Positions 27,412-28,449 of a stretch of 64,000 nt of DNA are shown piece by piece (position 1 is the stretch's first letter; each line of letters begins with the position of its first letter). Below the pieces are notes generated by a model. It was given only the letters and a program-made list of their open reading frames with translations. It was not told the origin of the DNA and did not search any database. The stretch lies in the sequence record PP925828.1. The stretch is one strand, 5' to 3'. A program made the position numbers and the translations under genes. This stretch comes from Escherichia phage SpoonbillGilly.

Positions 27412-27574
27412 TTTAGAAAATATGCTTATGGAGCAGTGGAATGCTGGGTATAATGCTGGAGTAGCTACCTGTATTGCTGGTTTGGATATGCTTATTAAGC
27501 AAGAGAAGGTTCGCCCAGAAGAAGCAATTCTGCTCCAAAATATCATCGAAGGATTCAAGCAAGGAATTGTATAA
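27380..27574 (+). CDS. hypothetical protein (64 aa)
   Basis: GGAGG RBS before internal ATG 27380; overlaps preceding ORF by about 30 nt. Confidence 0.4.
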   Translation: MDFLNQNLKSNLENMLMEQWNAGYNAGVATCIAGLDMLIKQEKVRPEEAILLQNIIEGFKQGIV

Positions 27575-28449
27575 TGCGTAGACTAATCGTTGTTAGGGGT
27601 GCAGGTTTGAGTGTAGATAGTGGTGTTCGTGCTTTCCGTACTGATACTGCTAGTGGGAAATCCTTGTGGGATGAGTACGATCTAGAGGAAGTATGTAGCT
27701 TGCCTAACTTTGAAGCTGGCTTCCGTCGCTTCTGTGGTGAAGATGATCCTAACTACTTCAGTGCTCGTTTCCCTGGCATTGATGAAGATGGTAACGATCT
27801 GTATCTCAAGACTCATGAGTTCTACAACATGCGTCGTCAGGAATTACAGACTGTTGAGCCTAACATTGCCCATCTGCGAATTGCAGAATGGTTCCAGCGT
27901 TATGGTGCGGATAGCGTGAAGAACTTCACTACTAACGTTGATGACCTTATGGAACGTGCTGGTATCCCTCGTGATGAAATCATTCACGCTCACGGGTACT
28001 TGAAAGAGGTGATCTATCGTCAGGGTCGCAACCAAATCATCGAAGATGTTGGGTATACTGCGATTGCCCCTGAGGATTACGAATGGGTAAAACCAAACGT
28101 AACATTCTTTGGTGAGACGGCTCCGTGGTATATGGGTCAGATTAACCTGTTTGATACACTTACTAGCAATGATATGGTTATTGTAGTAGGTTGTAGCAAC
28201 CAAGTAATCGACTTCAACTGGGAGCTATTTCCTGCTGTATGTCGTGGAACTAAGATGATGGTTGTTAACCCACAAGTTCGTTATGACGAACAGCTTGAGT
28301 ATGAGAAACGTGGTGTTACTGTATGGCGTGCTGGAGCTGCCGAAGTTTTTGGTAATAAACACTTTATTGATCAAGTTGAAGCTTTTATGGAGGGAAATAT
28401 TTATGTCCCAGAAAAGCATGTGGGATCTTTTAGTATGGCCAGATGGTAG
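27574..28449 (+). CDS. Sir2 (sirtuin)-family NAD-binding protein lacking the zinc-ribbon module
   Basis: GAGLSVDSGVRAFR (GAGIS..SGIP.FR-like), TTNVDDL (TQNID-like), HAHGYL (catalytic His), VVGCSNQV; no CxxC pairs. Confidence 0.7.
   Translation: MRRLIVVRGAGLSVDSGVRAFRTDTASGKSLWDEYDLEEVCSLPNFEAGFRRFCGEDDPNYFSARFPGIDEDGNDLYLKTHEFYNMRRQELQTVEPNIAHLRIAEWFQRYGADSVKNFTTNVDDLMERAGIPRDEIIHAHGYLKEVIYRQGRNQIIEDVGYTAIAPEDYEWVKPNVTFFGETAPWYMGQINLFDTLTSNDMVIVVGCSNQVIDFNWELFPAVCRGTKMMVVNPQVRYDEQLEYEKRGVTVWRAGAAEVFGNKHFIDQVEAFMEGNIYVPEKHVGSFSMARW

Follow-up and report, generated by a model that had tools for sequence, protein, structure and literature searches.

A CobB-like sirtuin without zinc ligands in a T5-like phage and its possible role in NAD-dependent RNA-end processing

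What a T5-like phage does with a sirtuin of its own is the question raised by the 64,000-nucleotide stretch of Escherichia phage SpoonbillGilly (PP925828.1) analysed here, hereafter the window, which is an Epseptimavirus sequence about 99% identical to published genomes. Much about the locus is already known: T5.102, the T5 orthologue of its sirtuin, has been annotated since the T5 genome paper and named Sir2-like since 2005, phage sirtuins lacking the zinc site were described in 2016, and the pairing of a sirtuin with an HAD hydrolase was published in 2022 together with a prediction of RNA repair. Our literature search found no reported experiment on any member of this phage sirtuin clade. 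We weighed the candidate functions against the protein, its relatives, and its gene neighborhoods, and we tentatively favor the function predicted by Iyer et al. 2022, namely that the sirtuin is an NAD-dependent RNA-end processing enzyme, which we regard as quite possible, if short of probable.

A CobB-like fold without zinc ligands

The protein matches the Pfam SIR2 family (PF02146; score 78.3 bits, cut-off 24; E 8.8e-22), PHROG 2162 (E 1e-105) and, by sequence, E. coli CobB (1S5P, E 2e-16), all well beyond what chance would give. The sirtuin motifs on which an earlier note on this DNA had based its identification are all present: the NAD-binding pattern GAGxSxxSGIxxFR occurs as GAGLSVDSGVRAFR at residues 9-22 with GAGLS inside it, TTNVDDL lies at residues 119-125, and HAHG at residues 138-141. 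The TQNxD motif takes the form TTNVDD, in which Gln is replaced by Thr and the Asn and Asp are kept, and all the residues needed for deacylation (GAGxS, Asn121, Asp123, His140, and FGE) are retained. Among 20 diverse clade members, GAGxS, TTNVDD, and the catalytic His are invariant or nearly so, and an alignment of clade sequences that are 55-79% identical contains 65 invariant positions, which include every catalytic and NAD-binding residue.

The only cysteines of the protein are at positions 41, 54, 207, and 223. Because none lies between His140 and Glu181 (FFGE), the region that holds the zinc ligands in CobB and other sirtuins, the four ligands are absent, and the earlier note was right that the canonical CxxC...CxxC zinc ribbon is missing. 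The same holds for the close homologues, in which the module contains no Cys in 87 and one Cys in 27 of the 114 parsable sequences. A wider tally drew on the representative search, which has one sequence for each 50%-identity cluster and gave 120 that could be parsed: of the 41 with a TTN motif, 32 had zero or one module Cys, and of the 79 with a TQN motif, 72 had at least three. In the AlphaFold model (pLDDT 78, pTM 0.79), the small domain nonetheless retains its sheet of three strands (141-150, 153-158, and 171-176; block pLDDT 70-85), indicating that the zinc ligands are gone and the small-domain module, as modeled, is kept. The helical part of this domain carries a variable insert of about 26 residues (48-76), and a change of TGA to GGA at 28423 adds eight C-terminal residues that are private to the sirtuin of the window. 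The pI is 4.9 (clade range 4.6-6.1), and no recognizable RNA-binding domain was found in the protein. A search for fusions among longer relatives (10 proteins of 297-528 aa from the representative search) gave SIR2 only, together with one WG repeat, and this architecture says nothing on function.

The model has the two-domain sirtuin fold. A Foldseek comparison with the PDB placed only deacylase sirtuins in the top 50, led by class III CobB, Sir2Af1, and SIRT5, with CobB the best match (E 5.9e-14, target-normalized TM 0.78). With CobB (1S5P, 6RXJ), SIRT5, and Sir2Af1, the phage protein shares the Rossmann and small-domain fold, GAGxS, the Asn/Asp pair, the catalytic His, FGE, and the Tyr-x-x-Arg motif of class III; it differs from CobB in that identity is only about 25%, the zinc-ligand cysteines are missing, TQNID has become TTNVD, and the variable insert is present. 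We used as evidence only those CobB residues that stand in alignments with CobB chains. FY84NMR87 aligns with CobB FY92NAR95, and the chain of the CobB Y92A mutant (6RXS), which reads FANARR at the same alignment position, confirms the match. This anion-binding pair, Tyr84/Arg87, is invariant in the 20 diverse clade members, as is the catalytic His. The phage clade descends from class III CobB-like sirtuins, having lost the zinc cysteines and kept the small-domain scaffold and the catalytic residues.

The main rival reading is that the protein is a phage counterpart of CobB, which would use NAD+ to remove acyl groups from lysines and, early in infection, change how proteins of the host or the phage are acylated. 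CobB, Sir2Af1/2, Sir2Tm, and SIRT5 are the best matches by sequence and fold, the best NCBIfam matches are deacylase models, and the Tyr/Arg pair suggests a preference for acidic acyl groups (succinyl, malonyl), or else a broad deacetylase. A similar case was argued in silico for the KVP40-like Vibrio phage Sir2/CobB (Skliros et al. 2016, PMC5107563), another phage CobB-like sirtuin without a zinc site, about 30% identical to ours, which adjoins NAD salvage genes of the NadV/NMNAT type and was proposed to be an acetyl-CoA synthetase deacetylase; that study noted the missing zinc site and listed T5 among the carriers. However, the scores fall far below all curated CobB equivalog and deacylase cut-offs (NCBIfam NF040867, NF001753, and others; 70.7 against 320 and 86.5 against 243), and the zinc ligands are gone. 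Pro221 of CobB, a residue of the acyl-lysine site that has been described as strictly conserved (PMC5107563), corresponds to Asp or Asn in the phage clade, a hint of an altered substrate site. A deacylase would also leave unexplained why, in phage groups that are not related, such sirtuins repeatedly lie with genes for RNA-end processing (see below, and PMC9503650). We consider it possible and somewhat doubtful.

Distribution and selection

Relatives of the sirtuin occur in 982 of 50,697 phage records (about 2%) and in several families. Identity is 96-99% to annotated Epseptimavirus proteins, 51-52% to T5 and SP15 (51% for H125, the sirtuin of the Tequintavirus SP15), and 25-36% to the sirtuins of jumbo phages (L060-L069), for whose gene contexts we follow PMC9503650. 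Nothing essential distinguishes the sirtuin of the window from the T5.102 orthologues, and it is the Epseptimavirus allele with a private C-terminal extension. The Epseptimavirus allele is about as distant from that of T5 as from those of other phage families.

Could the gene be a decaying or non-catalytic remnant, whose small domain became unstable after zinc was lost? The missing ligands would agree with this, as would the presence of only a sirtuin fragment (19% coverage) in at least one T5-like phage, DT57C, and the high divergence of the gene, which few others in the operon match (dN 0.29; HAD gene, 0.065). However, omega is about 0.2, which means purifying selection, and the 65 invariant positions, the retention in several phage families, and the confidently predicted small-domain sheet all argue against decay, so that a remnant is very improbable. 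Positive selection as the source of the divergence found no support in the same omega; the incongruent distances point to allele exchange in its place.

The operon and its counterparts in other phages

The features of the window are collected in Table 1.

Table 1 Features of the sirtuin operon and related features of the window
Feature	Position	Strand	Basis
PnuC nicotinamide riboside transporter	6222..6914	-	PF04973 E 3e-43; TIGR01528 121 bits vs 42
NadR-like NMN adenylyltransferase / ribosylnicotinamide kinase	6901..8007	-	PF01467 and AAA_28; PRK08099 260 bits vs 201
cREC protein, 105 aa, cyclic-phosphate-processing receiver domain	13234..13551	-	PF20274 E 1e-14, 55.4 bits vs 27
Terminator-like hairpin just 3' of nrdD, upstream unit boundary	26825..26849	+	10-bp stem, 6 GC pairs, T-run
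Small ORF, 93 aa, phrog_7953, CPT_Stitch106	26917..27198	+	
Small ORF, 67 aa, phrog_5236, CPT_Stitch107	27208..27411	+	
Small ORF, ~64 aa, phrog_5827, CPT_Stitch108; stop overlaps sirtuin start codon	27380..27574	+	Coordinates mapped from Stitch annotation
Sirtuin, 291 aa, T5.102 orthologue	27574..28449	+	Pfam, PHROG, PDB alignments, AlphaFold model
Small ORF, 60 aa, phrog_5116, CPT_Stitch110; overlaps sirtuin 3' end	28403..28585	+	
Small ORF, 61 aa, phrog_11166, CPT_Stitch111	28566..28751	+	
HAD phosphatase, HAD_SAK_2, T5.105 orthologue	28705..29244	+	PF18143 E 1.5e-19, 71.1 bits vs 27.5
DUF7415 protein, 142 aa, T5.106-like	29247..29675	+	PF24187 E 9e-37
DUF7415 protein, 131 aa, T5.107-like	29685..30080	+	Pfam E 3e-28
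Terminator-like hairpin, downstream unit boundary	30104..30124	+	T5: annotated terminator directly after T5.107
Split NAD-dependent DNA ligase	36212..38165	+	PF01653, PF03120, PF00533

The locus is of the T5.102 type: nrdD, small ORFs, the sirtuin, two small ORFs, the HAD gene, and two DUF7415 genes. Two terminator-like hairpins enclose the sirtuin, HAD_SAK_2, and the DUF7415 genes, whose reading frames overlap or abut, and the genes of T5 are arranged likewise, an annotated terminator and promoter standing where the upstream hairpin lies here; the sirtuin, the SAK-type HAD, and the two DUF7415 genes are one transcription unit. The HAD gene lies 256 nt downstream of the sirtuin; the Stitch annotation places its start at 28729. 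It carries FLDIDGVLN, and its LDIDG (the DxD motif), SSW, and LDD are conserved with ORF303c of Aeh1; a sequence search of the PDB gave no meaningful match for it. The earlier note had correctly placed an HAD-type hydrolase beside the sirtuin; what it missed is that this HAD is specifically of the "Swiss Army Knife" RNA-repair type and that a paper had already reported the pairing and predicted RNA repair from it (PMC9503650). This adjoining HAD is misnamed "Sir2 (NAD-dependent deacetylase)" in many phage records of RefSeq.

As the earlier note had also stated, the phage has PnuC and NadR and thereby encodes both NAD-consuming and NAD-supplying functions. To these we add the split NAD-dependent DNA ligase (adenylation and OB parts at 36212-37183, HhH and BRCT parts at 37383-38165), a second NAD consumer that could alone explain the salvage genes.

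The earlier note had further likened the protein to SIR2 domains of the minimal kind, which work as NADases or ADP-ribosyltransferases instead of deacetylases. Such an enzyme, resembling ThsA, DSR, or SirTM, would deplete NAD+, ADP-ribosylate host proteins, or destroy or create a signaling nucleotide during takeover or counter-defence. In lacking the zinc ligands and having Thr for Gln in TQNxD, the protein does depart from canonical deacylases, the phage carries its own NAD+ supply, and ADP-ribosyltransferase activity is known for some sirtuins (PMC9503650, PMC8556138). Nevertheless, the likeness was not upheld: neither sirtuin domain is missing from this full-length protein, the catalytic His and Tyr-x-x-Arg are kept, and the structural comparison that the note had called for returned deacylases in all of the top 50 places. 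The sirtuin had no match among 5027 PADLOC defence models at E <= 0.01. A PADLOC scan of the sirtuin and four of its operon neighbors was empty, and a defence-type SIR2 was rejected. By Pfam and PHROG, the neighbors are HAD_SAK_2, DUF7415, or families of unknown function, and no Macro, SLOG, TIR, HerA, or APAZ/Argonaute partner occurs in the operon. The defence NADases (ThsA, DSR1/2, SIR2-HerA, SIR2-APAZ) and SirTM have the superfamily and the NAD+ substrate in common with the phage sirtuin; unlike them, it lacks PADLOC matches and partner domains, is encoded by a phage, and is transcribed among replication and nucleotide-metabolism genes. SirTM, moreover, has a Macro neighbor and lacks the catalytic His (PMC8556138), which is present here as His140, and depletion of NAD+ would hurt the phage's own NAD-dependent DNA ligase. 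We therefore hold an NADase or ADP-ribosyltransferase to be improbable.

Iyer, Burroughs, Anantharaman, and Aravind described in 2022 a type-3 neighborhood of sirtuin and SAK-HAD, typified by the T5-like phage SP15, for which a KptA/Tpt1-like RNA-repair role was predicted (PMC9503650). The window has this arrangement, with a viral-clade sirtuin, a SAK-type HAD, and no adjoining Macro gene. In myophages with genomes of about 137-153 kb, an orthologous sirtuin (45-61% identity) stands in the order calcineurin-like phosphoesterase ... Rnl1 RNA ligase (PF09511), cREC (PF20274), AAA_33 kinase, sirtuin, ATP DNA ligase ... MazG-like, which is an independent reproduction of the type-2 neighborhood of PMC9503650. 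A context seen without reference to the sirtuin is that of the RNA ligase RnlA in T4-like phage Aeh1, which has HAD and DUF7415 homologues on its flanks and a CCA-adding enzyme nearby: ORF303c (32% identical to the HAD of the window) lies three genes from RnlA, and ORF299c (45% identical to the 131-aa DUF7415 protein; BLASTP E 1e-20) lies directly downstream of it. A profile of the cREC genes adjoining sirtuins in other phages first detected the cREC gene of the window, which is labeled only "hypothetical" in related genomes and is predicted to be another enzyme of this phage for the processing of RNA ends or ADPR>p. The close relative Stitch encodes a homologue of the phosphoesterase of the myophage repair block (hmmsearch E 2.9e-20).

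Synteny across related phages is non-independent evidence. Profile searches for the Rnl1 ligase, the AAA_33 kinase, and MazG found none in the window or in Stitch 1-50 kb, and no RNA ligase or polynucleotide kinase homologue occurs in these regions, so that a full heal-and-seal pathway would need host enzymes. Some T5-like relatives (Klebsiella phage Sugarland type, L006/L007, and L015) have the sirtuin without the HAD. In 17 Stephanstirmvirinae-type loci (clusters 7, 14, 15, and 18; e.g., L009-L014, L017), no recognizable RNA-repair gene lies within 6 kb of the sirtuin, and the neighbors recognized by Pfam are only a lambda-phosphatase-like Metallophos protein and an AAA_28 kinase. The gene just upstream in these loci is labeled "putative aminoacyl-tRNA synthetase" by the depositors; we set this label aside, as Pfam gave no such match.

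A possible role at RNA ends

The two-step mechanism of Tpt1 parallels sirtuin chemistry. In Tpt1, an NAD+-dependent two-step transfer begins with the attack of a substrate oxygen on C1'' and continues with an attack by the 2''-OH (PMC11417386). The proposed likeness of Tpt1/KptA to the sirtuin lies in this type of transfer and in the linkage of both to RNA ligase and cyclic-phosphate enzymes; it is an analogy of mechanism, not of family membership, as Tpt1/KptA has the ADP-ribosyltransferase fold, which is unrelated to the sirtuin Rossmann fold. We infer an RNA substrate and the following course of events. A host tRNA or RNA nuclease would make a 2',3'-cyclic phosphate end, the opening of which would leave a 2'-phosphate; this phosphate would attack C1'' of NAD+ in the manner of Tpt1/KptA, with nicotinamide leaving, and the catalytic His would serve the second, 2''-OH-dependent step. 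cREC and the HAD may either ready the RNA end or remove the by-product, and PnuC and NadR would restore the NAD+ consumed.

In favor of this RNA-end processing role we count the operon, the myophage gene order, the Aeh1 flanks, the cREC gene of the window, the Stitch phosphoesterase, the invariant His and Tyr84/Arg87, the replacement of Pro221 by Asp or Asn, purifying selection, and the 16 tRNA genes of the window. It is known that defences which cleave tRNA are directed at T5-like phages, and that these phages counter them with tRNA genes of their own (PMC11464382, PMC11555353). Against it we count that every one of the closest relatives, in sequence as in fold, is a protein deacylase, the acidic pI, the lack of an RNA-binding domain, the missing ligase and kinase, the Stephanstirmvirinae-type loci, the HAD-less T5-like relatives, and the non-independence of synteny.

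A more specific proposal is that the sirtuin, HAD, cREC, and calcineurin-like phosphoesterase form a ligase-less, "end-healing only" module for NAD+-dependent tRNA or RNA repair in T5-like phages, which would pass cleaned ends to host enzymes such as RtcB or the CCA-adding enzyme. The core of such a module is already published as a prediction, and we add only the version that lacks a ligase and the assignment of cREC, the phosphoesterase, and DUF7415 to it; we offer it as a speculation that is rather unlikely to hold in full. If it is true, no sirtuins before this clade would have been shown to act on a phosphate of a nucleic acid in place of acyl-lysine. Should the clade act on RNA as Tpt1 does, the known chemistry of sirtuins would extend beyond acyl-lysine to phosphates of nucleic acids, and an NAD-dependent response of phages to defences that cleave tRNA would come to light; should it be a deacylase, it would be an unusual example of a phage that rewrites the acylome of its host. 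For a sirtuin clade carried by about one in fifty sequenced phages, this is a biochemical question worth answering.

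The sirtuin fold and its zinc site

The sirtuin encoded here, the orthologue of T5.102, carries all three motifs read in the ORF by the earlier note (Table), and it matches Pfam SIR2 (E 8.8e-22), PHROG 2162 'Sir2' (E 1e-105) and E. coli CobB 1S5P (E 2e-16). Its zinc ligands are absent, because none of its four cysteines (positions 41, 54, 207 and 223) lies between His140 and FFGE181, the stretch that holds the ligands in CobB according to the alignments. The zinc-binding module claimed to be missing is thus missing in its ligands but not in its strands, three of which (141-150, 153-158 and 171-176) are kept at the zinc-ribbon site in the AlphaFold model (20-sequence alignment, pLDDT 78, pTM 0.79). 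The low-confidence part of this model, residues 40-57, lies within a variable insert (about 48-76) that is absent from some members of the clade of phage-specific sirtuins around T5.102, e.g. Erwinia phage KEY. Searching 1.8 billion sequences (one representative for each 50%-identity cluster) with a profile yielded 4842 relatives. Among the 120 parsable sequences of the best 150 of these, 32 of the 41 TTN relatives have 0-1 Cys in the module, while at least 3 are present in 72 of the 79 TQN relatives; judged from these sequences, zinc loss is the mark of a sub-clade, although the counts are not phylogenetically independent. All parsable close homologues (114/114) have TTN, 0-1 Cys and the Tyr-x-x-Arg.

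In the Foldseek search, all 50 top PDB matches are deacylase sirtuins, led by CobB and followed by Sir2Af1 and SIRT5, all three class III; a profile of 20 clade members repeated this ranking. In class III sirtuins, a Tyr/Arg pair holds succinyl or malonyl groups by their carboxylate. This pair is kept in the sirtuin, since the clade-invariant FY84N-R87 aligns in the 20-member profile with CobB FY92NAR95, exactly where the engineered Y92A chain 6RXS reads 'FANARR'; Asn121, Asp123, His140 and FGE are also kept. A CobB-like protein deacylase is therefore the main rival to the RNA-end role preferred below, though we consider it rather unlikely: the score misses every curated CobB or deacylase cut-off in NCBIfam by far, the Gln of TQNxD is replaced by Thr, and the clade has Asp or Asn aligned with CobB Pro221, a residue of the acyl-lysine site described as strictly conserved (PMC5107563).

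The gene itself is already known and widely annotated, with relatives in 982 of 50,697 phage records. Skliros et al. (2016) noted the missing zinc site in the Sir2/CobB of KVP40-type phages and listed T5 as a carrier (PMC5107563), and our literature search turned up no experiments on any phage member of the T5.102 sirtuin clade.

Relatedness and probable allele exchange

The 3.4-kb stretch around the sirtuin is 98.9% identical in Salmonella phage vB_SenS_UTK0010 and 98.6% in Stitch (Demerecviridae, Epseptimavirus), and of the 442 phage records with a match to it, nearly all are T5-like. The gene content nearby agrees with this assignment: PhoH, NrdD, an origin-binding-type protein, thymidylate synthase, RNase H, a split NAD-dependent DNA ligase and 16 tRNA genes. 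Relative to the usual form of the sirtuin, a TGA-to-GGA change at 28423 removes the stop and adds eight residues (GSFSMARW), and through this base the overlapping ORF downstream has Trp in place of Cys; vB_SenS_UTK0010 and PMBT26 match the full-length 291-aa protein.

Compared with T5-type loci, DNA identity is 84-90% in the flanking genes and 67-68% in the sirtuin body, and the insert is unalignable; at the protein level, identity is about 51% for the sirtuin, 87-91% for the neighbouring HAD phosphatase and 89-98% for NrdD in most loci, a few having a divergent NrdD allele (about 60%). The sirtuin has much the same dN (about 0.29-0.31) whether compared with the T5, Sugarland or My1 type, while that of NrdD is 0.01-0.04, 0.33 and 0.21, respectively; such a mismatch points to lineages having exchanged sirtuin alleles, and not merely diverged vertically. 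Because the first 124 nt keep flank-like identity (83-84% in most T5-type loci; 73% in L024), the comparison of loci L019-L058, L006 and L012 suggests a breakpoint near codon 42. The sirtuin is under purifying selection (omega 0.17-0.23), looser than its neighbours, and we regard a dead gene as highly improbable, far behind an RNA-end role or a deacylase. T5-like Escherichia phage DT57C (NC_027356.1, 46526-46681) keeps only a fragment, covering 19% of the query; loss of the gene thus seems possible.

Operon partners and a proposed link to RNA repair

Between two hairpins lie nine tightly packed ORFs on the + strand, in which three small unknowns precede the sirtuin, two more separate it from the HAD, and two DUF7415 proteins come last. 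The layout recurs in T5 as T5.100-T5.107 (T5.102, sirtuin; T5.105, HAD), where a promoter and a terminator are annotated. The HAD-type hydrolase noticed beside the sirtuin was borne out as HAD_SAK_2, the Pfam 'HAD domain in Swiss Army Knife RNA repair proteins', with its DxD motif intact; of the 498 phage records in which it is present, one already uses the name 'RNA repair protein' for it. Many RefSeq phage records call this gene (T5.105; CPT_Stitch112) 'Sir2 (NAD-dependent deacetylase)', which looks like a propagated misannotation, as it appears to stem from phrog_18062, which bears that name and spans only the C-terminal 92 residues of the HAD.

Features discussed in the text
Feature	Position	Strand	Remarks
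16 tRNA genes	650-11225	-	including Lys(UUU), Lys(CUU), Tyr, Asn, Asp, Glu, Arg(UCU)
YqeY-like, weak match	12097-12540	-	E 1.6e-5, 25.5 bits, just under cut-off 27
cREC_REC protein, 105 aa	13234-13551	-	PF20274, E 1e-14
Rv2179c-like 3'-5' exoribonuclease domain protein	14941-15642	-	E 1e-7
Terminator-like hairpin	26825-26849		upstream boundary of nine-ORF block
Sirtuin, 291 aa	27574-28449	+	GAGLSVDSGVRAFR, TTNVDDL, HAHG present
HAD	28705-29244	+	Pfam HAD_SAK_2, 71 bits against cut-off 27.5
Two tandem DUF7415 genes	29247-30080	+	end of operon
Terminator-like hairpin	30104-30124		downstream boundary of nine-ORF block
Split NAD-dependent DNA ligase, part 1	36212-37183	+	adenylation + OB
Split NAD-dependent DNA ligase, part 2	37383-38165	+	HhH + BRCT

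T4-like phage Aeh1 has homologues of the HAD and of DUF7415 around its RNA ligase RnlA: that of the HAD (ORF303c; 32% identity, E 3e-22) three genes upstream, and one of DUF7415 (ORF299c, L072 8296-8529; 45% identity, E 1e-20) directly downstream, with a CCA-adding enzyme ten genes beyond ORF299c. This ties two operon partners to tRNA repair independently of the sirtuin itself, and DUF7415, given this position beside RnlA, may be an uncharacterised RNA-repair accessory.

Iyer et al. (2022) described a distinct viral sirtuin clade with three neighbourhoods, for which KptA-like removal of 2'-phosphates was proposed (PMC9503650, section 3.7.3): type 1 in jumbo phages with 2H, Nudix, cREC and PIN; type 2 in V5/Mydo-type phages with a T4-like RNA ligase, cREC, kinase, MazG and calcineurin-like phosphoesterase; and type 3 (sirtuin and SAK-HAD), typified by SP15, a Tequintavirus. 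We compared 68 viral loci with sirtuin relatives and clustered their neighbour genes. The HAD neighbour occurs only in T5-like loci, among them the divergent Pectobacterium phage My1 type (L012; HAD 43% identical), and two T5-like sub-groups (Sugarland type, L006/7; L015) keep the sirtuin without it. Myophage loci of about 137-153 kb reproduce type 2, in the order phosphoesterase ... Rnl1 (PF09511), cREC (PF20274), AAA_33 kinase, sirtuin, ATP DNA ligase ... MazG-like. The claim of a universal linkage is weakened by 17 Stephanstirmvirinae-type loci (clusters 7, 14, 15 and 18; e.g. L009-L014, L017 and Justusliebigvirus), where no gene of RNA repair could be recognised within 6 kb of the sirtuin. 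An AAA_28 (NadR-kinase-like) and a lambda-phosphatase-like protein are found near their sirtuin, and the gene overlapping its start has no Pfam match. In Escherichia phage JohannJBalmer (L073, 6459-7813), the depositors labelled an ORF in this overlapping position 'putative aminoacyl-tRNA synthetase'.

A profile of the myophage cREC genes led to the ORF at 13234-13551, which Pfam then confirmed as cREC_REC and which is predicted to process cyclic phosphates; it adjoins an endolysin-like gene and stands 14 kb away from the sirtuin, and its Stitch counterpart, CPT_Stitch87, has no annotation beyond hypothetical. Outside the window, Stitch gene 31, named 'phosphoesterase', is homologous to the phosphoesterase of the myophage repair block (E 2.9e-20). 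The absence of any Rnl1 or polynucleotide kinase homologue from the window and from Stitch 1-50 kb counts against a complete repair pathway. The early region with the cREC ORF also holds the Rv2179c-like and YqeY-like ORFs, both of RNA/tRNA-related families; the tRNA genes alternate with small ORFs, and pnuC-nadR directly adjoin them.

NAD economy and the likely role

PnuC and NadR, reported earlier, were confirmed, so that the claim of NAD-consuming and NAD-supplying genes stands; the NADase or ADP-ribosyltransferase leaning fares less well, as the nearest folds are deacylases and PADLOC defence models gave no match to the sirtuin. The phage's own NAD-dependent DNA ligase is a second NAD+ consumer that alone could justify PnuC/NadR, and a sirtuin that did nothing but deplete NAD would be to the detriment of this ligase. 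We thus hold an NADase or ADP-ribosyltransferase to be improbable, less likely than an RNA-end role or a deacylase.

Our tentative preference is the published Tpt1/KptA-like RNA-end processing: the sirtuin would process RNA ends, cREC and HAD would prepare the ends or clear ADP-ribose cyclic phosphate, and the host would perform sealing or CCA repair, since T5-like phages seem to be without ligase and kinase. Caution is due mainly because the sirtuin is acidic (pI 4.9) and its relatives are purely deacylase-like.
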